Positions 883 through 32,000 of a stretch of 32,000 nucleotides of DNA are shown here, piece by piece (position 1 is the first letter of the stretch; each line of letters begins with the position of its first letter). The stretch is from Candidatus Methylomirabilis limnetica. Its GTDB lineage: Bacteria > Methylomirabilota > Methylomirabilia > Methylomirabilales > Methylomirabilaceae. Below the pieces are notes generated by a model. That model worked only from the letters and a program-made list of their open reading frames with translations. It searched no databases and was not told where the DNA came from. Location: contig NZ_NVQC01000036.1 in assembly GCF_003044035.1 (NCBI RefSeq), positions 53,362-85,361 of the forward strand, in the 5' to 3' direction. The position numbers and the translations under genes are program-made.

Positions 883-1015
883 CCCTGAAGGCGCCACATC
901 AGCCGTTTTGGACAAATAGGTACGTAGGCAGGTGGTAGGACCTCCGCGAGACTCACCTTTTCTCTTCCACAAACGTAAAATCTGTCGGATCGGCCGTGTT
1001 CTGGAGCAATTCGGG

Positions 1016-1450
1016 ATATAGGGACAGACACTATTTATTGAAATCCTTTCTTGGTCTTCCCATCTGCTACACGTGTATTACTCATCCAGCTTCCTGCGTA
1101 CCTCCCAGATGAACCCGTCTCTTCGCAGTGGTTCTTTCGGGTGTTCCGTGGGTACCCTGGCCTTCCAGCATCCCCTCCCCCCTCGAGGGGGAGGAACACA
1201 GCTACCCTCTTCCCCGGAAGGGATATTGAGATCCCTCGTACCCACGCTAATGCCGGAAGAACCTTTGCAGTGGCTGCTCTGTCATCGTGCGCATTCGTAT
1301 CGCTGTCGTCCCGAAAGACCGCCTGGCGATCATTCCCTCGTTGCCTCACATGATACGGGTGGCCGGGTACAACAGCTCGGGTAATCCGTGGCATGCATGA
1401 TCATTGCAGCGAACACCACGAATTGTCACGATAGTAGTGTAGTGTCCCCA
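1016..1450 (-). mobile_element. Y1-transposase-derived MITE-like element, copy 1 (longest; degenerate right end; carries an extra 135-142 bp internal segment)
   Basis: It begins ATATAGGGACAGACACTA and aligns along its length with the copies at 6953, 8920, 24489 and 30208. The minus-strand remnant reads MPRITRAVVPGHPYHVRQRGNDRQAVFRDDSD. The right TIR is damaged (TAGTGTAGTGTCCCCA). Confidence 0.7.
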
Positions 1451-1584: not shown

Positions 1585-1616
1585 AGGGACAGTACGCTAG
1601 CGTCTGTCCCTATTTT
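1585..1616. repeat. REPIN-like hairpin made of two inverted copies of the MITE terminal core
   Basis: AGGGACAG (1585-1592), an 11-nt loop, then CTGTCCCT (1604-1611) followed by ATTTT. This is the two TIR cores brought together with no internal sequence. Confidence 0.55.
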
Positions 1617-4031: not shown

Positions 4032-4291
4032 GTGACGTGGAAGGGGGCTGCGCTGCCCTTCCTCACCTTCCCCCGCGAGAATCGGAGAGGATGTCGTCGG
4101 CCGTCTTCGGCGGACAACGACGGCGTTGCGCCGGCGGAGCCGTCACCCGACCATCCCTCATTATTCAGCTTGCTGATAGCTGACATCTGATCATCGATGT
4201 GATAAGGCATTGCTTTCGATGACTGGAAGTAACTAATCCGCCCTCCTGGGAGTCCACATTACGGAGGCAACGATCCGGCTAACGATGAGTT

Positions 4292-4380
4292 CAGCGGGCG
4301 GCGTTTACGCCATCCCTGGAATGATTTGTTTGGCACATCCTCTTTGTGTATCAAACCTCAATGGTCGCTGTCCCTATTTT
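4292..4380 (-). repeat. About 89-bp repeat family, copy D, ending in AATGGTCGCTGTCCCTATTTT
   Basis: It aligns in modules with the copies at 22944, 25912, 27647 and 23806. The last 13 nt equal the MITE right terminus. It ends 7 nt before the stop codon of the minus-strand gene at 4388. Confidence 0.65.
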
Positions 4381-4387
4381 AAGAACT

Positions 4388-4735
4388 TTATCGTCTTTGG
4401 CGCGGTGTCTTGCCAGGCTGACACTGAGGATCAGGATTTGCGGATCGCTGTTTCAATAGCTCGCTAATCGTTCCCCTGAGCTTCATACATTGGATCGCAG
4501 TGTCGATGAATGGCTGGGCCAGTTTTGACGAGCCCGCTCTGGCCACCTGATCCGCGCCTTGATTGGCGGTAGCGGCCATCCCCTCATAGATACAGTAACG
4601 CTGGGTCAGCACCTGGGTGGTCATACCCTTCAGTTCAGCATACTCCACATGGCAATTCTCGGCCGCCGCTGAGACTCCGGGCAAAAAGGCGAGTAGTACG
4701 CCAAACGCGACACTTGCGCGTACAACGATTCGCAT
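4388..4735 (-). CDS. Small secreted hypothetical protein (signal peptide, four Cys)
   Basis: I chose the ATG at 4735 because GGAGG lies upstream and it begins the signal peptide MRIVVRASVAFGVLLAFLPGVSAAAE. I recognised no family. Confidence 0.5.
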   Translation of the reverse strand: MRIVVRASVAFGVLLAFLPGVSAAAENCHVEYAELKGMTTQVLTQRYCIYEGMAATANQGADQVARAGSSKLAQPFIDTAIQCMKLRGTISELLKQRSANPDPQCQPGKTPRQRR

Positions 4736-5059
4736 GGCCTTACCTCCTGCCGGATCCGATCCGACTGCTATCTGGCCCATAGATATTTACTGTCCCACCT
4801 TGTACCTTGCCATAGCCGACACTCCGCCACCTGGCTGTGCCAGGGCAATACCCTTGACAAAGTCGCCGCAGCGGTCATAAACGGCCATGTGCCCGGGCCA
4901 GCCCGGGCGGCTACCGTCCGGTGGGGGCGGCATCGAGGTCTCAGAATGGCTGTTGTGTTCACTGGGCACGGAGAGAGCGAGTGGAGACCCCTCTAATGCT
5001 TCCTATCGTCAAAAGCGTGGCGGCTGATTTTTACTTTCGGCGTTCTTATATTTTCTCAT

Positions 5060-5096
5060 TTTTAATTGTCGCTGTCCCTATTTTCCTATTTTCCTG
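5060..5096 (-). repeat. Minimal copy of the shared repeat terminus with a reiterated CTATTTT heptamer
   Basis: AATTGTCGCTGTCCCTATTTTCCTATTTTCC was read directly. It lies about 10-20 nt beyond the stop of the PQQ dehydrogenase gene. Confidence 0.5.
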
Positions 5097-5106
5097 AGAA
5101 AAGACG

Positions 5107-6918: not shown

Positions 6919-6952
6919 TTCTCTCCTGCCTTGCAAGTTGTTGGTCTCTCGA

Positions 6953-7248
6953 ATATAGGGACAGACACTCTTTATTGAAATCCTTTCTTGGTCTTCCCTT
7001 CTGCACCACGTGTATTACTCGTCCAGTTTCCTGCGCACCTCCCAGATGAACCCGTCTCTTTGCAGTGGCCGTTCTGTCATCGTGTGCCTTCGAATCGCTG
7101 TCGTTCCGAAAGATCGCCTGGCGATCATTCCCTCGTTGCGTCACATGATACAGGTGGCCGGACGCAACGGTTCGGAGAATCCGTGGCAGGCACGATCATG
7201 ACCGCGGACAGCACGAATCGTCACAATAATAGTGTCTGTCCCTATTTT
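6953..7248 (-). mobile_element. Y1-transposase-derived MITE-like element, copy 2
   Basis: ATATAGGGACAGACACTC ... TAGTGTCTGTCCCTATTTT. The minus-strand remnant reads ...HVTQRGNDRQAIFRNDSDSKAHDDR...KGRPRKDFNKE. It lies between the hydrolase stop and the PQQ-dehydrogenase start. Confidence 0.75.
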
Positions 7249-7363
7249 TACTATTTTTTAATTTTTTACGAGCGTGTAGTTCACTTTATTTTCGATCTCA
7301 CACTACAGCAACCAGGTGTTGATCGCCAACCCGGAGTTACTGCCCTTCATTACGGCCTGATCT

Positions 7364-8764
7364 TCACCTTGTTTCGCAGTTTATTGCGGTCTGCTTCTCG
7401 CTGCGGCTCGAGATCAGGATCATCTGCTTGACGAATTCGATGACTCGAGGATCGTCGATGTCGTTGTGCTCGTGGATCAGTTGCTCGTCGACGTAGACTA
7501 CGAGATACGGGTTGCGACCCGCCGAGTTGGTGGTGCGTTCCAGCACCACGTCACCAAACGTGATCTTGCTGCCGGGCGCGTCGCAGACCCAATCAGCTCT
7601 GGAGCGCTCGAACATCTGGATGCTGTCGGCGGCGCTGGCGGCCTTGAGTTCCTCACGCTTGCGTTCCTCCGTCGGGTAGAGGTGGTGGGTACGATAGGGT
7701 TTGAAATGACCGACGGCGCGGACATTGGCGTCATGTTCGCTGATCGTTTCCGTCTGACCGGTCTCTGCATTTCGGCGCTGGCGATCGTGCGTTTTCTCGA
7801 AAATGGTCGAGAACCAGCGCCCGATCGGAAAGGCGTAACGGGTTGCGGCATCGGCCTCGGAGGTCAGCACCAGCACGACCGGCAGTTGTGAGGAGAAATA
7901 GGTGCGCCGCTCGGCAGCCATGTCGCTCATCGGTGTAAACAGGTTGGCCTCAAATGCCGGGTTAATCAGTACCACCAGGTTGCCGAATCCCTCGATGTCG
8001 CTCTTGCGGCCTGCCGGGCCGGTGGTCTGGACAAAGCGGTTTTCCAGAAACTGGGCCACCGCGGTCTGCATCACCGCGCCGCCAAAGCTGTGGCCGACGA
8101 CCACGAGTTTGGTGTTACTGCTGCATAGCGTGTCGTCGTTTTTACTGACCGTACGATCGCGGCAGACTATGCTGTCCTTGGTGAGCTTGATATCCTCCAA
8201 CTGGCTCAGGACCTCGGCGACCCCGCCGTACCCGACTTTCTGGGCGGTGTTTTTGCGGTCCCAGAAGGTGACGTTTTCGAGATATTTCACCGGCAACGAA
8301 CCGCCGCGCCAGCCGAAGTAGATGCCGACCACCTGGCGGACTGGGGTACCCGTTCTCTTGGCCAGAAGGGCCTCGGCATCGCTCAGGTTGGCCAATACGG
8401 CGCGGAAGGTGTTGATATTGGTATCACCAGGCGCGGCGCTGTGCTTCCAGCCGTGCACAAACACCACCATCAGCAGATCGCGGGTACCGGCCCCGGTCTG
8501 GAGTGTCGTCAGGACATCGCGCATCTGCCGGCGGTCCCAGAGCTGGCCCTGGTCGTCGAATTCAATGAATCCGAACAGGTAGCTGGAGCCGTTATTGCCT
8601 GGCAGTTGTTGCAGCGCGTGGGTTTCACACTCAGGCGTGGGTTTCGGCTCCGGGCTGACGCACACGTCCGGGTGGACGGTACGGTATTTCATGTGCGGGG
8701 CGCAGGCCGTCACGGTCAGCAGTGCAAGAACAGTGGTGGCGATTGAGGCGGCTGTTGTTTTCAT
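7364..8764 (-). CDS. Lipoprotein alpha/beta-hydrolase of unknown specificity (DUF900-like esterase/lipase fold)
   Basis: I chose the ATG at 8764 because AAGGAG lies upstream. It has a lipobox LLTVTAC, the nucleophile elbow VVVGHSFGGAV, and VVFVHGWKHS near the N-terminus. Confidence 0.7.
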   Translation of the reverse strand: MKTTAASIATTVLALLTVTACAPHMKYRTVHPDVCVSPEPKPTPECETHALQQLPGNNGSSYLFGFIEFDDQGQLWDRRQMRDVLTTLQTGAGTRDLLMVVFVHGWKHSAAPGDTNINTFRAVLANLSDAEALLAKRTGTPVRQVVGIYFGWRGGSLPVKYLENVTFWDRKNTAQKVGYGGVAEVLSQLEDIKLTKDSIVCRDRTVSKNDDTLCSSNTKLVVVGHSFGGAVMQTAVAQFLENRFVQTTGPAGRKSDIEGFGNLVVLINPAFEANLFTPMSDMAAERRTYFSSQLPVVLVLTSEADAATRYAFPIGRWFSTIFEKTHDRQRRNAETGQTETISEHDANVRAVGHFKPYRTHHLYPTEERKREELKAASAADSIQMFERSRADWVCDAPGSKITFGDVVLERTTNSAGRNPYLVVYVDEQLIHEHNDIDDPRVIEFVKQMILISSRSEKQTAINCETR

Positions 8765-8919
8765 ATTCTTGTGCTCCTTTCCGTATCTCTGGCGCGTCAA
8801 GATTGACGCTTGCGGAAATAGTACGCCGGGCCTGGTGAAGAATCAATCCTCCTACACATACGCAAGAGCGGCATACTGTTGAACCATCCGATGCGTGTTG
8901 AAAAACTAATATAGAACTA

Positions 8920-9214
8920 ATATAGGGACAGACACTATTTATTGAAATCCTTTCTTGGTCTTCCCCTCTGCTACACGTGTATTACTCATCCAGTTTCCTG
9001 CGTACCTCCCAGATGATCCCATCCCCCTTCGCAGTGGTCGCTCTGTCATCGCGTGCATTCGAATCGCTGTCGTTCCGAAAGACCGCCTGGCGATCATTCC
9101 CTCGTTGCCTCACAGGATACGGGTGGCCGAATGCAACGGTTTGGGTAATCCGTGGCATGCACGATCATTGCAGCGAACACCACGAATTGTCACGATAGTG
9201 TCTGTCCGTATTTT
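8920..9214 (-). mobile_element. Y1-transposase-derived MITE-like element, copy 3 (best preserved)
   Basis: ATATAGGGACAGACACTA ... TAGTGTCTGTCCGTATTTT. On the minus strand there is an uninterrupted 58-codon remnant, MPRITQTVAFGHPYPVRQRGNDRQAVFRNDSDSNARDDRATTAKGDGIIWEVRRKLDE. Confidence 0.75.
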
Positions 9215-9230
9215 CTATTTTACTATTTTA

Positions 9231-9355
9231 CGATCTGATGCGGGTGAGATCGACGGCTGCGTCGAACATCGCCATGGAAAGGCGGTCATGCCGCTCGTTG
9301 CCCGCCGGGTCAGGTCGTGGGCGAAGTACTTCGCGTGGTGAGGGGTGAGGCTCAT
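9231..9355 (-). pseudogene. 5' fragment of an SNF2-type helicase gene, frameshifted and cut off by the MITE copy 3 end
   Basis: A hand translation of the minus strand from the ATG at 9355 gives MSLTPHHAKYFAHDLTRRA. After a 1-nt shift it reads DRLSMAMFDAAVDLTRIRS. I recall this as the N-terminus of SNF2-family helicases (M.LTPHQAKYFA.ELTRR....L...L.DA.VDLNPHQ). The fragment is under 60 aa and so is absent from the ORF track. Confidence 0.5.
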
Positions 9356-9415
9356 CGTCGTCGATATCTCAGTCGTCATAGCGTGGTGTTTTTGCGATGC
9401 CGGAAACCGCTACGC
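9354..9415 (+). pseudogene. 62-nt fragment of a vapC 5' end
   Basis: It matches 460-521 at 58 of 62 positions in my manual alignment. It encodes IVVDISVVIAWCFCDAGNRYA and has no remaining gene body. Confidence 0.7.
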
Positions 9416-13854: not shown

Positions 13855-13923
13855 GGGCGCAGCAAGCGGCGCCCCTACGCAGCCTACACCAAACCCCCCG
13901 TTCCCCCCTTTCGTAAAGGGGGG
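13855..13923. repeat. GC-rich hairpin repeats in the mutase / Fe-S gene spacer
   Basis: GGGCGCAGCAAGCGGCGCCCCTAC (13855-13878) is identical to 19308-19331. CCCCCCTTT-CGT-AAAGGGGGG (13903-13923) recurs in the same form at 15986-16006. Confidence 0.6.
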
Positions 13924-13976
13924 TTGGGGGGATTTGCACCTCGCACCCCCGCTTTTGCAGGGGCAGGCTTCGCACT

Positions 13977-15972: not shown

Positions 15973-16018
15973 AAATCCCCACGCGCCCCCCTTTTGTAAA
16001 GGGGGGATGGGAGGATTT
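15973..16018. repeat. Extended GC-rich hairpin
   Basis: The inner stem is CCCCCCTTT/AAAGGGGGG (15986-16006), flanked by AAATCCCC ... GGGAGGATTT. It has the same core as 13903-13923. Confidence 0.55.
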
Positions 16019-17196: not shown

Positions 17197-17997
17197 TTAA
17201 ATCAGCTTGATCTCGCGCAGCTTGACCGCCAGGTTCGCGGCTTTTTCCTCCGGCGTATTCCCCTCGATCATCTCGCACCTGGACTCCTTGACCGGGATAT
17301 AGACATCGGTGATCTCGACCCTGGCTGCGCCGGCGCCGATCTTCTCCAGGTCAAGCCCAAGATCCGCTGCCTTCCAGACGGGGATCATCTTCTTGGCAGC
17401 CGCCATAATATCTTTCAGTTTAGCGTAGCGGGCGGTGTTCGTCTCGTCAGAGCTGATGGCGGCAAGGAACGGGGTCTTGGCTTCGATCAGTTCGTACCCA
17501 TCCTCGACCACTCGACGGACGACCACCTGTCCATCCTTTACCTCGATTCGGGTCACATATCCGACGTACCCGATCCCGAGCTCCTCGGCCAGGAAGCCAG
17601 GGACAGCCCTATCAGCCCAATCCCCCGACTCACAGCCGGTCAGGATCAGGTCATATGCGCCTGCCTTGCAGATCGTTTTCGCCAGGACATGGGCAATCCC
17701 TTGCTGGTCTGACCCCGCGAGAAGCGGATCATTGACCAGGATTGCCTCGTCGGCGCCCATCGACAGGGCGCTTTTCAGCGCTGCGATCGTCGTTGCCCCT
17801 CCGACGCTGATGGCCGTCACCTTGGCGCCCTGCTTCTCCTTAAGTTTGATGGCCACCTCGAGGGCATTGGCGTCGTAGGGGCTGATGACCAGCGGGTTAT
17901 TCCCCTGGACCTGCCGCTTGGTCCTGGGATCGATCTTAAACTGACTCATCGGGACCTCAGGATCGATAATCTGCTTGATGCACACAATGATGTTCAT
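17197..17997 (-). CDS. etfB: Electron transfer flavoprotein beta subunit
   Basis: 266 aa from the ATG at 17997 (MNIIVCIKQIIDPE). The longer track ORF starts at a TTG inside the heptamer array. Confidence 0.9.
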   Translation of the reverse strand: MNIIVCIKQIIDPEVPMSQFKIDPRTKRQVQGNNPLVISPYDANALEVAIKLKEKQGAKVTAISVGGATTIAALKSALSMGADEAILVNDPLLAGSDQQGIAHVLAKTICKAGAYDLILTGCESGDWADRAVPGFLAEELGIGYVGYVTRIEVKDGQVVVRRVVEDGYELIEAKTPFLAAISSDETNTARYAKLKDIMAAAKKMIPVWKAADLGLDLEKIGAGAARVEITDVYIPVKESRCEMIEGNTPEEKAANLAVKLREIKLI

Positions 17998-18004
17998 ATG
18001 GTTG

Positions 18005-18074
18005 GGTTCACCGTTCAACGTTCAACGTTCAAGGTTCAAGGTTCAAGGTTCAAGGTTCAAGGTTCAAGGTTCAA
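18005..18074. repeat. Tandem heptanucleotide array, 10 units (GGTTCAC, 3x CGTTCAA, 6x GGTTCAA)
   Basis: Units were counted directly from the sequence. The array starts 8 nt upstream of the etfB ATG, in the acd-etfB spacer. Confidence 0.85.
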
Positions 18075-18114
18075 GCCACGTGAGGGCGCCCACGAGGGGC
18101 GCCCCTACGCCGCG

Positions 18115-21171: not shown

Positions 21172-22851
21172 TTATCCCGCAGCCTCGCACTCTTCCCCAG
21201 AGGGGGTAGCGGAGGTGAGGTGGGCATAGGGGGACCAGGTTTGTAGGCGCTGGTCTTCTACAGGGGTGCCGATGGTGAAATGGTAGAGGGTTTGGAATTG
21301 GTTGTCTTTGAGGCCCATGAGGTTGTGGACCGCGTCGTCGAAGAAGCAGCCGATGCCGGTGGCCCGGAGTCCGTGGGCTTCGGCTTCGAGGTAGAGGACT
21401 TGGCCGATCATGCCGGTTTCCCAGTAGAGATGCCGATAAAGGTAGGGGGCTTCTTCAACGCTGCGCCGAAAGTCCGCGATCATCCCCAGGGAGAAGGCGC
21501 TGTCTCCGGCAATGTCCTGTTGACAACTCACCGCTGTCGCTTCCCGCATGAAAGGGCCTTCCGTCAACAGAAATAACGGCAAGCCTTCCTTGGCTCGTTT
21601 CCATGCAAATTCAGGACGGCATGCGGTTTTGAGGCGTTCAAATCCAGCCTCGTCGCGCAGGAACATGTAGAGGCCGGGCGCGAGGCCGAGAACGCGATGC
21701 ACGAATAGAAGCAGGTGCACGCGGACGGGGCCCAGCTTGAAATCAAATGGGACGGTATCTTCGCGCGGTAGAGTTTTGTCCAGCATAGTGAGGAACTGCG
21801 ATTCGGAGATGCTCGTGGCTCCGTCAAATGCCAAGGCACTTCTCCTCTGTCGGATGATGTGGGCGGCCCGGATCCGGGACTCGTCCCCCGGGAAGAATGG
21901 ACGGTGGGGAGCGAGCCAGTGTTGTGTGGGCGTTCTTGGTTTGGGGGCGGCTTCGGCGATCTCCGAAATAATTTCCCAGTCTATATGATCCTCGCTTAGG
22001 CGGTTGGGCCGGCCTTGGAAGGGAAGTCCCACGATTTCGCTGATGAGTTCAGGGGGGAGGTTGGCGGGAATATCCTTCACGTTTGAAGGGTGCGCGTAGC
22101 AAAGGATTTCGGGATGCTCCGCCTCCCCCTCAATCCAAGTCGTCTGGGTTAAACCGAGCACCGCCGCGACGTCTTCATCCGACGCTTCGCTTAAATACGT
22201 GATCTTCCATCCCAAGAGGTTGGCGGCGAAACCGGCTGCGGCAATGGCGTGGCCTAAGTCGTGGTTACAATAGCGGAAAGCCCTCTCCCCGTATTTCCAT
22301 GCTTCGCGCCAGAAAATACTGGTCAGGCCGAAGAGGAAGCCGTCCACGGCGAAATGATTTGTGAGGCGCGCGCAGACCTTTTCCGGAAATAGGGCCCTGG
22401 GTTCCAGCGCGTGGAGGTAGGGGCTGTAATGAAACACTCCCGGCTCACCGGCGATGTTGCCCAGGGTCACCACGTAGCCTTCCGTGGGGTGGAGGTTACC
22501 GCTGGAGGGGTTCATGCGAAGCGCCCATTTATTGCCGCCCGCGGACTTCCAGGCGGAAAGACCGAGCGACAATTCCAAAAAGAGTGACAGGTTTTGGAGG
22601 GAGAAATCCCGGACGGGATTGTCTTCTCTTCGGTACAGGTCCATATGAGCGGCGCCAAGGTCTTTTTCCGTAAATGGCAGATTGAGCCGCGTGAGGCCTT
22701 CATACCATCGGAACGGATTGGGTTGGTTCGCCCAATCCATGTAGCCTAGAGACCTGGCTTGGCGGTCATAGTGGTGTTTTGTTTCTTCGTGGTACCGGGT
22801 GACAGCATCAACGTCGTTCAATTCGGCACCGACCTTCTCATTCGATAGCAT
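21172..22851 (-). CDS. SagB/ThcOx-type dehydrogenase (tandem nitroreductase-fold protein)
   Basis: 559 aa from the ATG at 22851. It has the N-terminal TRYHEETKHHY motif. Its length fits two nitroreductase-like halves, with C-terminal GCFFDD and FTIG motifs. Confidence 0.65.
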   Translation of the reverse strand: MLSNEKVGAELNDVDAVTRYHEETKHHYDRQARSLGYMDWANQPNPFRWYEGLTRLNLPFTEKDLGAAHMDLYRREDNPVRDFSLQNLSLFLELSLGLSAWKSAGGNKWALRMNPSSGNLHPTEGYVVTLGNIAGEPGVFHYSPYLHALEPRALFPEKVCARLTNHFAVDGFLFGLTSIFWREAWKYGERAFRYCNHDLGHAIAAAGFAANLLGWKITYLSEASDEDVAAVLGLTQTTWIEGEAEHPEILCYAHPSNVKDIPANLPPELISEIVGLPFQGRPNRLSEDHIDWEIISEIAEAAPKPRTPTQHWLAPHRPFFPGDESRIRAAHIIRQRRSALAFDGATSISESQFLTMLDKTLPREDTVPFDFKLGPVRVHLLLFVHRVLGLAPGLYMFLRDEAGFERLKTACRPEFAWKRAKEGLPLFLLTEGPFMREATAVSCQQDIAGDSAFSLGMIADFRRSVEEAPYLYRHLYWETGMIGQVLYLEAEAHGLRATGIGCFFDDAVHNLMGLKDNQFQTLYHFTIGTPVEDQRLQTWSPYAHLTSATPSGEECEAAG

Positions 22852-22943
22852 GCTCAACAATGAGATTACAAGATACGGGGAGCAGCCGCGAAGCGGTCGG
22901 TTTCGTGCCCATGGTTCTCCCGGATCGTAACGACGGGAAGGGA

Positions 22944-23030
22944 CACCGGCGCGGCGAAGCCATGTCCGAGTTGATGCCTTGGTGATCAGCCGATGCAGGC
23001 AAATCGAAACAAATGGCCACTGTCCCTATT
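22944..23030 (-). repeat. About 89-bp repeat family, copy A
   Basis: CACCGGCGCGGCGAAGCCATGTCCGAGTTGATGCCTTGGTGATCAGCCGATGCAGGC...AAATGGCCACTGTCCCTATT. It starts 35 nt beyond the stop of the VIT gene. Confidence 0.7.
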
Positions 23031-23065
23031 GCACTGAGGTGTCGCGTTCCTTGACCCCATAGATC

Positions 23066-23755
23066 TCAAGCGGCTACCCCAAAAAGGGCGCCAACTCCAG
23101 TGGTCAATGCCATTGCCAAGGCCCCCCAAAAAGCGATGCGCGCGACAGACGCAATCACGGGTGCGCCCCCTGCGCGTGCAGACAAGAAGCCCAACACTCC
23201 AAGAAAGAAGAGTGAGCTACCTGCGACACCCCACATGAGTGCAGAAATTGGAAACAAGAGAACTATCAGAAGCGGCATGACCGCGCCAACGGCGAACGTA
23301 CCCGCCGAGACTAATGCGGCTTGCACTGGTTGCGCGGCCATTGTGTCGGATATACCCAGTTCGTCTCGTCCATGTGCGGCAAGCGCGTCATACTTCATTA
23401 ACTGACTAGCAACGTTCGAGGCCAGCGTCTCATCCAGCCCACGCTTCACGTAAATGGACATCAATTCCGCGTGTTCCTGCGCTGGGTTCGCAGCCAGTTC
23501 TTTGCTCTCCCGAGTCAGATCCGCGCGCTCGGTATCGGCTTGTGAACTGACCGAGACATATTCGCCGGCAGCCATTGACATGGCGCCAGCGACAAGGCCG
23601 GCAACTCCTGTAACCAAGATGCCATGAGTGCCTACGCCTGCTGCCGCGACGCCCAAGATAAGGCTGGCAGTAGAAACGATACCGTCGTTCGCGCCAAGAA
23701 CAGCGGCGCGGAGCCAGCCTGTTCGGTGTGTTCTGTGTATTTCACTGGGGCTCAT
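23066..23755 (-). CDS. VIT1/CCC1-family iron/manganese transporter
   Basis: 229 aa from the only ATG, at 23755; the track ORF starts at a TTG. It has HRTGWLRAAVLGANDGIVSTASLILGVAAAG, a central acidic loop and C-terminal TM helices. Confidence 0.8.
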   Translation of the reverse strand: MSPSEIHRTHRTGWLRAAVLGANDGIVSTASLILGVAAAGVGTHGILVTGVAGLVAGAMSMAAGEYVSVSSQADTERADLTRESKELAANPAQEHAELMSIYVKRGLDETLASNVASQLMKYDALAAHGRDELGISDTMAAQPVQAALVSAGTFAVGAVMPLLIVLLFPISALMWGVAGSSLFFLGVLGFLSARAGGAPVIASVARIAFWGALAMALTTGVGALFGVAA

Positions 23756-23805
23756 AGCGTCTACCGCGTAATGGATAAGTTCATTGCTACTCCCAACGTG
23801 TGGCT

Positions 23806-23850
23806 GAGCGGCGGCGTTTACGCCATCCAAATGGTCACCGTCCCTATTTT
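23806..23850 (-). repeat. Deletion derivative (45 bp) of the 89-bp repeat family, copy E
   Basis: GAGCGGCGGCGTTTACGCCATCC joins directly to AAATGGTCACCGTCCCTATTTT. These are the two end modules of copy D with the middle missing. Confidence 0.6.
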
Positions 23851-24034
23851 AGTAAGCGATCGGCGGTGAGCGGCTCTGTCACCAGTCCGCTTCATCGGCT
23901 GGTTGGGCAGCTATTCGAAATCTTCACGATGTGGGGTCGCAGAATGGAAACCGCCTCGTGCCATTCCATGGGTTCATTCTCCTCCAAGTCTGCCCAACAG
24001 ATATTAGCCGCCACTCCTTACACAGACTCGATGA

Positions 24035-24427
24035 TTACTCAATCACCTTCACGCCATCTACAAAATAGTCCGTTTCTCCATCCCACACCATATTCTTTAT
24101 GATCTGTTGATAATGAAGCGATACTTGCTTGCCTTCTAATTTCATCAGGATGTCTGCTGTCGCATTATCGCGTACAGAGAACGCCCAGATACTGTTCACT
24201 TGTGCCGTATTTGGAATATTGCCCATACCGCCAATGTTCAGCTCGCCTTCGTAGGTTTTAAACACATATCCCTTTTTCGAAAACTTAATCAGCACCCCTG
24301 CTCGGCTACCTTCACTGTAGGTATAGTTGAAAATGAGAAAAGTGCTGACGACTCCCGCAATCACTATTGCCAGCACAATGAACATCCATTTTTTACCGGA
24401 CGATTGTTTTGATACCGTATCAGCCAT
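24035..24427 (-). CDS. Hypothetical membrane-anchored small protein
   Basis: 130 aa with one N-terminal TM helix (WMFIVLAIVIAGVVSTFLIF) followed by a beta-rich domain. The gene looks more AT-rich than the window average and has no clear Shine-Dalgarno sequence. Confidence 0.6.
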   Translation of the reverse strand: MADTVSKQSSGKKWMFIVLAIVIAGVVSTFLIFNYTYSEGSRAGVLIKFSKKGYVFKTYEGELNIGGMGNIPNTAQVNSIWAFSVRDNATADILMKLEGKQVSLHYQQIIKNMVWDGETDYFVDGVKVIE

Positions 24428-24488
24428 GTTGTTGTTTTCTTTCGATGCTAAACCAGCGTTTCATTTGAACACTTCAGATAGGATATTG

Positions 24489-24789
24489 ATATAGGGACAG
24501 ACACTCTTTATTGAAATCCTTTTTTGATCTTCCCCTCTGCTACACGTGCCTTATTCGTCCAGTGTCATGCGCGCCTCCCAGATGAACTCGTCTCTTCGCA
24601 GTAGTCGCTCTGTCATCGTGCGCATTCGTATCTCTGTCGTGCCGAAAGACTGCCTGGCGATCATTCCCTCGTTGCCTCACAGGATACGGGTGGCCGGATA
24701 CAACGGTTCGATCAATCCGTAGCGGGCACGATCATGACCGTACACACCACGAATTCCACGATACGCGTGCGCGTGTCTGTCCCTATGTT
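24489..24789 (-). mobile_element. Y1-transposase-derived MITE-like element, copy 4
   Basis: ATATAGGGACAGACACTC ... GCGTGTCTGTCCCTATGTT. The right end lies 3 nt from the stop codon of the 167-aa gene, and the left end lies 62 nt upstream of the 130-aa gene start. Confidence 0.75.
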
Positions 24790-24792
24790 CCA

Positions 24793-25296
24793 TTACGCAG
24801 ATGCATCCGTATCACTATCAAGACCTCTCACCTTCTCATCACCATGATCATCGTCATCCCCAGCATCATCTTCCTCAAACGGTGTACCAGGAAAATCATC
24901 ATCTGAGAGTATGGGTGGTGCATCAGAGTTAAACAACGCCATAATCCATACATCCTTATTATCTGAGTCGAATATAAAGGACACACCTTTGCCATATCGT
25001 TCTCGTAATGTCTTTAATACCGGGTGCGTGGAACGGACTTTCTGGAAGAAGTCTGTTATAGCATCGTGCTCTTGTTTCTCCAGTTGTTCAAGCTCCAATT
25101 CAACGTGTTCCAAGGCGAGTTTGGCTTTCTTTGCCATAAACTCCGCATGGTCGGCAAGACGCTGAGATTTTTCCAGTGCAATATCGGTCATTGTTTGGCA
25201 TTTAGCACGAAGCATCATAATCTTGGAATGGTCCATGAGGGAATCTGGATCGGTCACTGGTATACGCATGGGTTCTTTGAGCAATGCGACTTTCAT
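24793..25296 (-). CDS. Hypothetical protein with a coiled-coil N-terminal half and a strongly acidic C-terminal tail
   Basis: 167 aa with a strong AAAGGAGG upstream. I recognised no family. The tail reads DDDFPGTPFEEDDAGDDDDHGDE. Confidence 0.6.
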   Translation of the reverse strand: MKVALLKEPMRIPVTDPDSLMDHSKIMMLRAKCQTMTDIALEKSQRLADHAEFMAKKAKLALEHVELELEQLEKQEHDAITDFFQKVRSTHPVLKTLRERYGKGVSFIFDSDNKDVWIMALFNSDAPPILSDDDFPGTPFEEDDAGDDDDHGDEKVRGLDSDTDASA

Positions 25297-25378
25297 GGTG
25301 CCTCCTTTAAATGGCGATAGAGGTGGAAATGGTCTTGGGGATAGTCCTGGAAATGGTTGGTACCGGGTATGGCGCTCC

Positions 25379-25762
25379 TTATTTTATTAATTTCGTCGAT
25401 GTGCAGCACGTAGAATCGAGATGGCACGACCAGGCAGCGCCAATTTGTTTGTGCAAGGCGCGGGTCTCCAGAGGTGATGACAACAAACGGGAAACACGCG
25501 GGATGGAAAACATCACCGTATCTGGAGCTACTCCGGCAGGCAGTTCGATTTCCACCGTCATTTCCTGGCCGTCGATGACCGGCAACCAGTACGTCCGCGC
25601 TTCATCGCTTGTGTCGCCAGCGGCACGATTGCGGGCGAGGGTTTCCATGATCTCCTGGCCTGAGACCTCGAACACTTGCTCCGAGCGTCGCGTCAGGGCG
25701 GGCGGGTCGGCCGCCAGCGATTCCGCGAGCTTCAGGCGCACGAGGTCGTGGGATATTGTCAT
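25379..25762 (-). CDS. Hypothetical protein (weakly supported)
   Basis: 127-aa ORF with no Shine-Dalgarno sequence. The first 90 or so residues look protein-like and the C-terminal 35 look degenerate. It follows repeat copy B. Confidence 0.35.
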   Translation of the reverse strand: MTISHDLVRLKLAESLAADPPALTRRSEQVFEVSGQEIMETLARNRAAGDTSDEARTYWLPVIDGQEMTVEIELPAGVAPDTVMFSIPRVSRLLSSPLETRALHKQIGAAWSCHLDSTCCTSTKLIK

Positions 25763-25911
25763 CGTCAGAAGGATACGCTACGCCACATCGGTCCTGAAGG
25801 GAAGGACAATTCTGTCGGAGGACCGGCTGGCTTCCGGCACGAGCACCCACGCGATGCCTCGTTGATGGCCTCCGCACGCCGGGAAGTCATCGCGACTCCT
25901 CCGCCCGCGCC

Positions 25912-25998
25912 AGCAGCGCGGCAAAGCCGTGTCAGAGTTGATGCCCTGGTGATCAGCCGACGTAGGTGAATCTACACAAATGGTCGCTGTCCCTATTT
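25912..25998 (-). repeat. About 89-bp repeat family, copy B
   Basis: It aligns with copies A and C and ends AAATGGTCGCTGTCCCTATTT, 19 nt beyond the stop of the OYE gene. Confidence 0.7.
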
Positions 25999-27646: not shown

Positions 27647-27735
27647 CACCGGCGCGGCGACGCCGTGTCCGAGTTGATGCCCTGGTTATCATCCGATGCA
27701 GCTGAATCTACACAAATGGTTGCTATCCCGATTTT
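27647..27735 (-). repeat. About 89-bp repeat family, copy C (slightly diverged terminus CTATCCCGATTTT)
   Basis: CACCGGCGCGGCGACGCCGTGTCCGAGTTGATGCCCTGGTTATCATCCGATGCAGC...AAATGGTTGCTATCCCGATTTT. Confidence 0.65.
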
Positions 27736-27877: not shown

Positions 27878-28169
27878 TCACGGATCTCCCACGAGCTTCT
27901 GATGGCATGATGTGCAGAAGTGACGGCGCTTGCAGGAGAATGCCAGGAGATATTCATGGCCGCGATCCTTGCATTTCACACGGGCAAAGCCGTTGCGCAA
28001 ATCGCCGCAATCCCAGGTAACGGAATATCGTCTGCCCTATTTCAGGTGGCAGATACCCCAAGCGGGCGTGATACCGCTCCTCGTGTACCCGCTCCAGTTC
28101 CTCGAAGAAGTCCTCTACGCATCGGTAATAGTCCGATAATCTGGGATTGCGCGGGGTGTAGAGCGCAGA
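27878..28169 (-). pseudogene. N-terminal zinc-binding-domain fragment of an IS91-family transposase; frameshifted, with no start and no catalytic domain
   Basis: A hand translation of the minus strand gives LYTPRNPRLSDYYRCVEDFFEELERVHEERYHARLGYLPPEIGQTIFRYL. After a 1-nt shift near 28012 it reads DCGDLRNGFARVKCKDRGHEYLLAFSCKRRHFCTSCHQKLVGDP-stop. It is not in the ORF track because it has no start codon. Confidence 0.65.
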
Positions 28170-30015: not shown

Positions 30016-30207
30016 GAGTGCGTCAAGAAGATGCCTGCCCACGTCATCCGCACACGCGTCATGCGGCATCCTCATATTCCGGCACGTAGTGAGCCTCTTC
30101 ATATTCACCCACCTGACTATCGGCGTACACGAGCAGCGGGTCTGCTTCCTCCGTGACCGGCGGCCCTCTTCCTCGTTGCGGCTGTCGCTTCGGAATCGGC
30201 GTGCTTA

Positions 30208-30501
30208 ATATAGAGACAAACACTCTTTATTAAAATCCTTTGGGTCTTCCCCTCTGCAACACGTGTATGACTCGTCCAGTATCCTGCGCACCTCACAGAT
30301 GAACCCGTCTCTTTGCAGCAGCTGCTCTGTCATCGTGCGCATTCAAGGCTCTGTCGTTCCGAAAGACCGCCTGGCGATCATTCCTTCGTTGCCTCACATA
30401 ATACGGGTGACCAAACGCAACGGTTCGGGTCATCCGTGGCATGCACGTTCATGACCGCGAATACCACGAATTGTCACGATACTAATGTCTGTCCCTATTT
30501 T
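30208..30501 (-). mobile_element. Y1-transposase-derived MITE-like element, copy 5 (most diverged left TIR)
   Basis: ATATAGAGACAAACACTC ... TAATGTCTGTCCCTATTTT. The interior is collinear with the other copies. Confidence 0.7.
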
Positions 30502-30722
30502 AATCGCTTCGCGCAAGGTTTCTTATGGCGGACGGTGCATCCCCACCAGAAGTCGGCAGCAATGGCCTTCCCCCCCGGACCATTTCTCAATGTAAGAGTC
30601 GAGCTGCTTCCCCCGCGAAGGTTAAAGTAACTTACGCAGAAGTCGGCGCGGTCGGCCACCTCAATGGTCTGTTGCAGTACCGGCAGGAGCGATTGCTCGA
30701 TGTTGTCTAATATCCTAGGCAT
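30502..30722 (-). pseudogene. 5' fragment of a PLD-like-domain helicase gene; one frameshift, one in-frame stop, cut off by MITE copy 5
   Basis: It reads [38 protein letters not shown] 1-nt deletion in the G5 run (30610-14) shifts the frame to [28 protein letters not shown]-stop-ETLREAI, which runs straight into the MITE terminus. I recall this pattern from the N-terminal PLD/NucT-like modules of large helicases in restriction/defence loci. Confidence 0.5.
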
Positions 30723-31762: not shown

Positions 31763-32000
31763 CCAAGAATACGCAGGGACAGCGCTGCGTCGGGCAGGAG
31801 TCGAGATACAAACTGGGCCACTCGCGGAAAACAGCATTGTTGTCCTTTCTGTTTTAACAATCTCATAAAATATTGGCTCTTCGCGTAATCGAGTGGGTGA
31901 ATTTAACATGAAATCCTCTGTAAGCCTTGTGGCATCTGGTAAAATCCGGTCTGCACCCCTTGCAGAAAACGGGAGGATTTCTCAATGGCTATTTCAACCA

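Follow-up and report, generated by a model that had tools for sequence, protein, structure and literature searches.

Oriented 20-nt repeats in a 32-kb segment of Candidatus Methylomirabilis limnetica as probable ends of a TIRYT-type Y1/HUH element

The repeat and its copies in the window

The stretch of DNA analysed here (32,000 nt; positions 53,362 to 85,361 of contig NZ_NVQC01000036.1, assembly GCF_003044035.1, of Candidatus Methylomirabilis limnetica; hereafter the window) has a plus strand that is C-rich throughout, carries nearly all of its credible genes on the minus strand, and contains a set of short oriented repeats that are probably the terminal inverted repeats (TIRs) of a TIRYT, or 'TIRtron', element with a Y1/HUH transposase. 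The 10-nt core of these repeats, GTCCCTATTT, occurs exactly seven times on the plus strand and not at all on the minus strand, and with up to one mismatch there are 17 matches against 1.23 expected, a number reached by none of 100 shuffles. The core is the outer half of a 20-nt TIR, AATGGTCGCTGTCCCTATTT, that is common to all copies. A scan with the 20-nt sequence recovered all 11 plus-strand sites listed in an earlier sequence-only reading of the window, together with the minus-strand left ends of four of the five copies of a miniature inverted-repeat transposable element (MITE); the left end of the fifth (~30203) was visible in the repeat search and the alignment. The repeats, delimited by repeat finding and self-BLAST, form two families, five copies of ~296 nt and three 88-nt copies with one TIR each, the rest being lone TIRs. 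In total there are five MITE-type copies and seven lone TIRs, three of the latter belonging to the 88-nt family. The copies and their immediate surroundings are as follows.

1011-1450, minus strand: MITE copy c1, an internally deleted copy of the putative TIRYT element with a degenerate 5' (right) end
1132-1262: foreign insert in c1, 140 nt, with a C-run/G-run hairpin
1263-1394: transposase remnant open reading frame (ORF) of c1
1585-1616, plus strand: mini-doublet, a short left arm AGGGACAG (1585-1592) followed by the TIR end ...GTCTGTCCCTATTT; the T2SSB-like gene 1694-2425 ends 77 nt away
4283-4338: imperfect palindrome bounded by AAC/GTT, 25 nt inward of the TIR at 4360-4380
4360-4380, plus strand: lone TIR AATGGTCGCTGTCCCTATTT; 7 nt from the stop of gene 4388-4780
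5064-5100, plus strand: lone TIR (5064-5083), then the reiterated terminal heptamer TCCTATTTTCC; the PQQ dehydrogenase gene ends (5107) 23 nt from the TIR
6948-7248, minus strand: MITE copy c2, 301 nt, the reference copy; its end lies 115 nt from the minus-strand stop at 7364
8915-9232, minus strand: MITE copy c3, copy proper 8915-9214, with reiterated CTATTTT units outside the 5' TIR at 9215-9232; adjoins gene fragments
22944-23031, plus strand: one-TIR 88-nt repeat, copy a, a TIR with the conserved subterminal block ATCAGCCGATGCAGGCA; the VIT1 gene ends (23066) 34 nt away
23795-23850, plus strand: lone TIR (23830-23849) fused to half of a palindrome of the 4283-4338 type
24484-24789, minus strand: MITE copy c4, 5' TIR 3-4 nt from the stop of gene 24793-25296; also present in a related strain (contig L156)
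25911-25998, plus strand: one-TIR 88-nt repeat, copy b; the Oxidored_FMN gene ends (26018) 19 nt away; the inner boundary of the repeat (25916/25917) is a synteny break relative to contigs L059 and L132
27647-27734, plus strand: one-TIR 88-nt repeat, copy c, with a degenerate TIR (ATCCCGATTT)
30203-30501, minus strand: MITE copy c5; adjoins a truncated gene

The sequence-only reading had given all copies one direction and had placed each of them just 3' of a co-directional gene. Within the window the common direction is borne out, and the distances to the minus-strand stops at 24793, 4388, 5107, 26018, 23066, 1694 and 7364 agree with the ORF table from which the window ORFs were taken. Two copies fit the placement less well: the one at 23830-23849 overlaps the VIT1 ORF at its nominal start and is separated by 185 nt from the next stop (24035), and the one at 27715-27734 faces a transposase gene fragment only. 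The reverse-oriented core that had been quoted as following a plus-strand gene is present (AGGGACAGCG, 31774-31783); it matches the TIR at only 12 of 20 positions and is weak evidence. Because nearly all genes lie on the minus strand, gene-strand, DNA-strand and replication orientation are inseparable within the window.

Further copies of the terminal heptamer C[CT]TATTT (CTAATATAG at left ends) stand immediately outside the TIR at 23 of 174 ends, compared with 2 of 174 controls, and this may be relevant to cleavage; the cases in the window lie at 5085-5100, 7249-7262, 9215-9232 and 8901-8917. No Rfam family was found at the repeats in a scan of the window and 12 related loci, no tRNA was found in the window, and a text search of the literature for the motif returned unrelated primer matches only. 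A structured-RNA reading of the 88-nt repeat was dropped, its single-strand folds being no better than shuffles and its three-sequence consensus fold having one compensatory pair only.

The parent element and its relatives

The five MITE copies can be aligned end to end, and the minus strand of each 296-nt copy encodes a peptide that reads MPRITRAVVPGHPYHVRQRGNDRQAVF... or MPRITRAVVPGHPYHVRQRGNDRQAVFR... and continues, past a deletion, with ...RDGFIWEVRRKLDE and a stop codon. The layout is that of a TIR, a leader, the first 44 codons of a gene, its last ~20 codons and a second TIR. A word-indexed protein search with the remnant returned other remnants only; a profile of the 44 residues matched 1190 proteins at E<=0.001, and the transposase domain PF01797 was present in eight of the ten longer ones checked. 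Full-length relatives with a TIR at both ends and a gene with NHVH and Y[VI]ExNP motifs were found in three contigs.

L033, 5946-6691: full-length element, TIR at both ends, NHVH + Y[VI]ExNP gene
L047, 5377-6123: full-length element, TIR at both ends, NHVH + Y[VI]ExNP gene
L055, 6960-7709: full-length element, TIR at both ends, NHVH + Y[VI]ExNP gene

The full-length elements measure 746-750 bp and hold one gene of 221-223 aa (typically ~747 bp and 222 aa), in which PF01797 is found at E values of 4e-16 to 5e-15 and the HUH and tyrosine motifs read NHVHF together with RYVENNP, RYIERNP or RYVERNP in the L047, L055 and L033 proteins. The gene begins beside the ...GTCCCTATTT end, and the window remnant is placed likewise. 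The 296-nt MITEs are therefore internally deleted copies of a transposase element of ~747 bp. Two of the full-length transposases are only 55% identical, yet they have the same TIR. A phmmer search of one full-length protein against PDB sequences gave no match.

A scan of one genome per species with the query AATDGTSDCYGTCCCTATTT found at least 120 loci, and all counts across phyla given here refer to the loci listed from that scan. The metagenome-assembled genomes (MAGs) concerned carry more than 15 phylum labels, a few of them archaeal, with GC contents of 33-68%; among the labels are Omnitrophota, Nitrospirota, Planctomycetota, Elusimicrobia, Gemmatimonadota, Desulfobacterota, Chloroflexi, Clostridia and others. 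The listed loci include 40 inverted TIR pairs, of which 28 are hairpin doublets of 46-150 nt, six are of intermediate size, five span 600-900 bp and one is larger. The four variable positions of the TIR are identical in both arms in 35 of these 40 pairs, against an expectation of 31%, and folding of the doublets gives near-perfect hairpins (-24 to -26 kcal/mol, z-scores of -9 to -13). A single TIR arm has no self-complementarity and no GTAG/CGTC tag. The usual arm, AGGGACAG, matches seven of the eight positions of the GGGGWSAS motif, and variant arms read GGGGACAG. A metagenome scan with a 20-mer internal to the MITE yielded 29 loci of the same lineage, and related contigs hold more than 30 MITE copies, compared with five in the window.

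Siting and orientation of the copies

Copies lie at rearrangement and truncation points. Parts of the window have orthologous counterparts, 92-98% identical, in some of the lineage loci, and in one of these (L133 336-3275, 97.7% identical to window 30034-30718) two direct MITE copies flank a 2.35-kb segment that is missing from the window, where a single copy stands; the segment holds an NmrA-like/DUF2867 gene on the opposite strand. This layout reflects either recombination between copies or a compound-transposon-like unit, and the same two-copy arrangement surrounds a gene of 301 aa in L154 (3919-5580). The two truncated genes to which the sequence-only reading had drawn attention are real N-terminal fragments on the minus strand, an SNF2-like helicase at 9231-9355 beside c3 and a PLD/helicase-like protein at 30502-30722 beside c5, and c3 is also accompanied by a PIN N-terminus on the plus strand (9352-9415) that is 95% identical to 461-521. 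A contig labelled Candidatus Methylomirabilis (L059 2569-3198) has in common with the window a MITE copy (88%) and flanking sequence of 232 nt (89%).

A second conserved block, TGCCYGCAWCGGCWGAT / TGCCYGCAWCGGCWGATMRC, is located 10-25 nt inward of the lone TIR in the 88-nt family of the window and in L012, L022, L052, L098 and L126. In places it adjoins AAC/GTT-bounded palindromes that resemble the attC sites of integrons, although their folds lend no support to a canonical attC.

Orientation was examined in 20 contig sets of the lineage other than the window, and across phyla in lone TIRs from which doublets, gene-adjacent ends and intragenic matches had been taken out. Gene calls outside the window were made from ORFs, length and Markov heuristics, by which atypical genes are missed, and the counts are approximate. 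At unique MITE sites of the lineage the gene at the GTCCCTATTT end was co-directional in ~12 cases and divergent in ~7. Clear divergent neighbours with strong coding scores (444 aa at 102 nt, 497 aa, 306 aa, and 302 aa at 113 nt) are present in L131/L138, L133, L136 and L151/L154, and the claim that a copy always lies just 3' of a co-directional gene fails there. Coding was mostly co-directional with the remnant in 12 of the 20 loci and opposite to it in eight. Among the listed lone TIRs across phyla, 32 face the 3' end of a gene and 16 a 5' end (p=0.03); 21 stand between tandem genes co-directionally, ten between tandem genes anti-directionally and seven between convergent genes, and divergent genes flank none of the 38 for which both neighbours were called. 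The lone TIRs that point the other way, one third of those listed, are often 15-50 nt upstream of a start codon. The listed full-length genes are co-directional with the upstream neighbour in seven cases and not in three, and with the downstream neighbour in nine and not in two. Downstream, co-directional placement is thus a tendency (2:1 for the 3' sides of genes) and follows the general pattern of repetitive extragenic palindromes (REPs), whose usual place is downstream of genes, between ORFs that are unidirectional or convergent (PMC3733652); it is no strict rule.

Copies within one contig share a direction. All five MITE copies agree in the window, all three in L154 and both in each of L133, L137, L139, L156 and L157, and the lone TIRs agree with the orientation of their contig as well, with one exception (L140). 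The agreement persists where the genes between copies run opposite to them (L133, L154). The suggestion that orientation follows the gene does not survive the divergent, strongly coding neighbours in the lineage. Of 21 lineage loci (short, MITE masked), 16 have a G-rich transposase-sense strand (p=0.027), and the same holds for 11 of the 12 listed full-length genes across phyla, a hint that fits replication-coupled strand bias. Such a bias is known for IS608 and ISDra2. The apparent gene rule mostly reflects a window with its genes on one strand, an outcome the sequence-only reading had itself envisaged; what remains is the 2:1 preference for gene 3' sides and a regional concordance of strand, for which either replication or selection may be responsible.

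The probability that the repeats are TIRs of a TIRYT-type Y1/HUH element, and that their common direction in the window is a regional strand effect with no rule set gene by gene, is estimated at roughly 0.65. By analogy with IS608, ISDra2 and TnpA-REP, two TIRs would pair on single-stranded DNA as a hairpin or panhandle, and the transposase would cut at the TATTT boundary and move one strand. Copies would enter strand-specifically, in a manner tied to replication, because such a transposase would act on single-stranded DNA and move one strand, and they would survive mainly downstream of genes. Several results weigh against this explanation. A lone TIR is unable to form the hairpin required by the model, and a search of the literature found no biochemical test of any TIRYT. 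Neither the window nor the lineage yielded an intact transposase gene, L008 holding a disrupted one only. In the C-terminal extension of the full-length proteins (~95 aa) no Pfam family, a helix-turn-helix (HTH) included, was detected at E<=0.01. In the flanks of the copies no target-site duplication, shared direct repeat or conserved sequence was seen, and a search for empty sites with the joined flanks of every MITE copy and lone TIR matched none of the loci. Across phyla, skew and gene strand are inseparable (rho=0.87), the idea of a replication strand rests on the skew of short loci, and the listed lone TIRs show no bias relative to the bulk gene strand or GC skew (36 of 65).

If the element instead recognised gene 3' ends or terminators, each gene setting the orientation of its own copy, all copies in the window would fit, as would the 32:16 preference of the lone TIRs for gene 3' sides and the 21:10 ratio in tandem contexts with seven convergent and no divergent cases; the TAG inside AAATAGGGAC also forms the stop codon of several ORFs. 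Gene-directed targeting is nevertheless considered unlikely in view of the divergent gene at ~7 of 19 lineage MITE sites (four with strong coding), the opposite coding in eight of the 20 lineage loci, the reversed third of the listed lone TIRs and the single orientation kept in each contig beside differing genes, and its strict form is ruled out by these counter-examples. What stands of the sequence-only proposal of gene 3'-end targeting is the 2:1 preference and the absence from divergent gaps. It is similarly doubtful that mechanistic bias is lacking altogether and that random insertion, loss from promoters and head-on sites, a one-strand window, and shared descent or local duplication produced the pattern. 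The strand distribution of the window genes, the unbiased lone TIRs across phyla and the downstream siting of REPs in general (PMC3733652) all accord with such an origin, but the 11 within-contig MITE-MITE comparisons agree without exception, and the lone TIRs with one, which is unlikely for random insertion beside differing flanking genes, and GC skew favours one strand in 16 of 21 loci.

A further idea is that lone TIRs are part of integron cassette 3' ends, in the order ORF, TIR and attC, or are aimed at attC hairpins; the make-up of cassettes would then account for their position directly behind co-directional genes. An AAC/GTT palindrome does lie 25 nt inside a TIR (4283-4338) and half of one is fused to another (23795-23829). 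Behind the TIR, both in the window and in MAGs of other phyla, comes block TGCCYGCAWCGGCWGAT, with which a 70-nt palindrome of L126 begins (CAGATAAC...GTTATCTG), and the MITE of L005-L007 is found among small genes separated by repeats ending in GTTAGGC. The window, however, is largely housekeeping and has no integrase gene, its palindrome folds no better than shuffles (z of -0.4 to -0.7), the L079 relative folds as a cloverleaf unlike an attC hairpin, and only ~8 of 57 listed lone TIRs have the block, and a cassette origin is regarded as very improbable. Two home-made attC searches beside lone TIRs gave no match and are uninformative, as they missed the candidate at 4283-4338 too. A broader conjecture, also thought unlikely, combines these elements with the preferred TIRYT reading: one tyrosine-transposon lineage, with a 20-nt end near-invariant across more than 15 phylum labels, would seed doublets, gutted MITEs and one-TIR modules, the modules, with their second block TGCCYGCAWCGGCWGAT, marking strand-specific insertion beside single-strand hairpin sites, for instance attC-like palindromes with which cassette genes end on the 3' side. 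If this were true, TIRYT would constitute a new class of hairpin-targeting, replication-strand-biased mobile DNA that remodels gene ends.

Other features were recorded in the window and in other contigs. The palindrome with RYYYAAC/GTTRRRY-like boxes and the core GGCGTTTACGCC, whole at 4283-4338 and half at 23795-23829, also occurs in a Deltaproteobacteria MAG (L079 3775-3835). In a groundwater contig (L005 541-700 and 1441-1560) the MITE sits in an array of small same-strand genes (ABM, antitoxin-like) with repeats of ~130 nt ending in GTTAGGC between them, an arrangement resembling an integron cassette array. The minus strand at 27880-28090, in the interval from the third 88-nt repeat to glgC, holds fragments of an IS91-type transposase (Zn-binding N-terminus, FARVKCKDCGHEYLLAFSCKRRHFC) and an rve-integrase C-terminus. 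Palindromes of the form CCCCCC...GGGGGG follow two housekeeping genes (13891-13935 and 15974-16018) and resemble the c1 insert (1132-1262), with which they appear to make up a second, unrelated repeat family. A tandem 7-nt repeat, GGTTCAA/CGTTCAA, of ~11 units (18005-18081) is located at the 5' end of the etfB-like gene 17197-18018, and a conserved stretch of 44 nt (22900-22943, GGTTTCGTGCCCNTGGTTCTCCCG...) upstream of the nitroreductase-like gene 21172-22860 is also present in a MAG that is unrelated (L079 2672-2715); this stretch had no Rfam match.

Public contigs that contain the VIT1 gene of the window are almost all shorter than 2 kb, the longest being less than 5 kb, probably as a result of assemblies breaking at these repeats. 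The repeats are found at gene truncations and at a 2.35-kb insertion or deletion between strains, and they are open to being mistaken for regulatory motifs or terminators; the gene-orientation 'rule' amounts to no new principle. TIRYT, or RAYT group 1, is both the largest and the least understood class of RAYT-like transposases, and the window and its relatives offer a concrete substrate for tests of binding, cleavage and strand bias in the form of a 20-nt TIR, mini-hairpins of ~50 nt, a MITE and intact 747-bp elements.

Comparison with known systems

The 296-nt copies resemble other bacterial MITEs (NEMIS/Correia, RUP, ERIC) in their size of ~300 bp, 20-nt TIRs, many copies, lack of an intact gene and position beside genes and rearrangement points. 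They differ in that no target-site duplication was found and in their source, which is a tyrosine (HUH) transposon here and a DDE transposon there. The proposal in the sequence-only reading of single-stranded DNA insertion, as in IS200/IS605 or REP elements, was right in kind, the ends being TIRs of an element with a Y1/HUH RAYT-like transposase. With IS200/IS605 elements (IS608, ISDra2) the present element shares the PF01797 domain and the lack of a visible target duplication, and a single-strand, replication-coupled mechanism with strand-biased insertion would be expected by analogy. In IS200/IS605, however, the ends carry subterminal hairpins without TIRs, the tyrosine motif is Y---Q and the left end has a short conserved target on its 5' side, whereas the ends here are inverted repeats of each other, the tyrosine motif ends in NP and the IS200 model of NCBIfam (NF033573) scores 25 bits against a cut-off of 55.

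The REP/REPIN-RAYT systems (Nunvar 2010; Bertels & Rainey 2011, PMC3116915; Ton-Hoang 2012) have the same class of transposase and likewise consist of short non-autonomous repeats arranged as inverted hairpin doublets, extragenic and mostly downstream of genes, although the window itself contains only a rudimentary doublet (1585-1616). They are set apart by the single arm, which is non-palindromic and without the GTAG/CGTC tag in the present element, by the score of the NCBIfam model REP_Tyr_transpos (NF047646), 65 bits and under its cut-off of 80, and by distribution, since the repeat here is common to many phyla while REPINs are lineage-specific and vertically inherited. By NCBIfam score the protein stands closer to RAYT than to IS200.

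The closest likeness is to the TIRtron or TIRYT class, described as RAYT-like genes with long TIRs, a GGGGWSAS motif and TIR repeats that are single, dimeric or grouped (Di Nocera, De Gregorio & Rocco 2013, PMC3733652). TIRYT corresponds to TnpA-Y1 subclass 2.1, with NHVH and Y[IV]xxNP motifs and a median length of 238 aa, for which no REP-like sequences were found and a C-terminal HTH-like extension (Bac_DnaA_C, HTH_23 or HTH_28) was reported (Quentin et al. 2018, PMC6006769), and RAYT group 1 is the largest and most IS-like RAYT group apart from group 6, itself within IS200 (Bertels et al. 2017, PMC5581495). The present element agrees in having a Y1/HUH gene of ~220-240 aa between long TIRs instead of REP hairpins, both motifs, repeats that are single, dimeric or grouped, and a wide and patchy taxonomic spread. 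The TIR core (AGGGACAG/GGGGACAG) may correspond to GGGGWSAS. It differs in four respects, none of which was found described in the searchable literature: no C-terminal HTH domain is recognised by Pfam, the 20-nt TIR is near-identical over more than 15 phylum labels while two transposases share 55% identity, a 296-nt deletion derivative with both gene ends has multiplied, and there is an 88-nt one-TIR family with a second conserved block.

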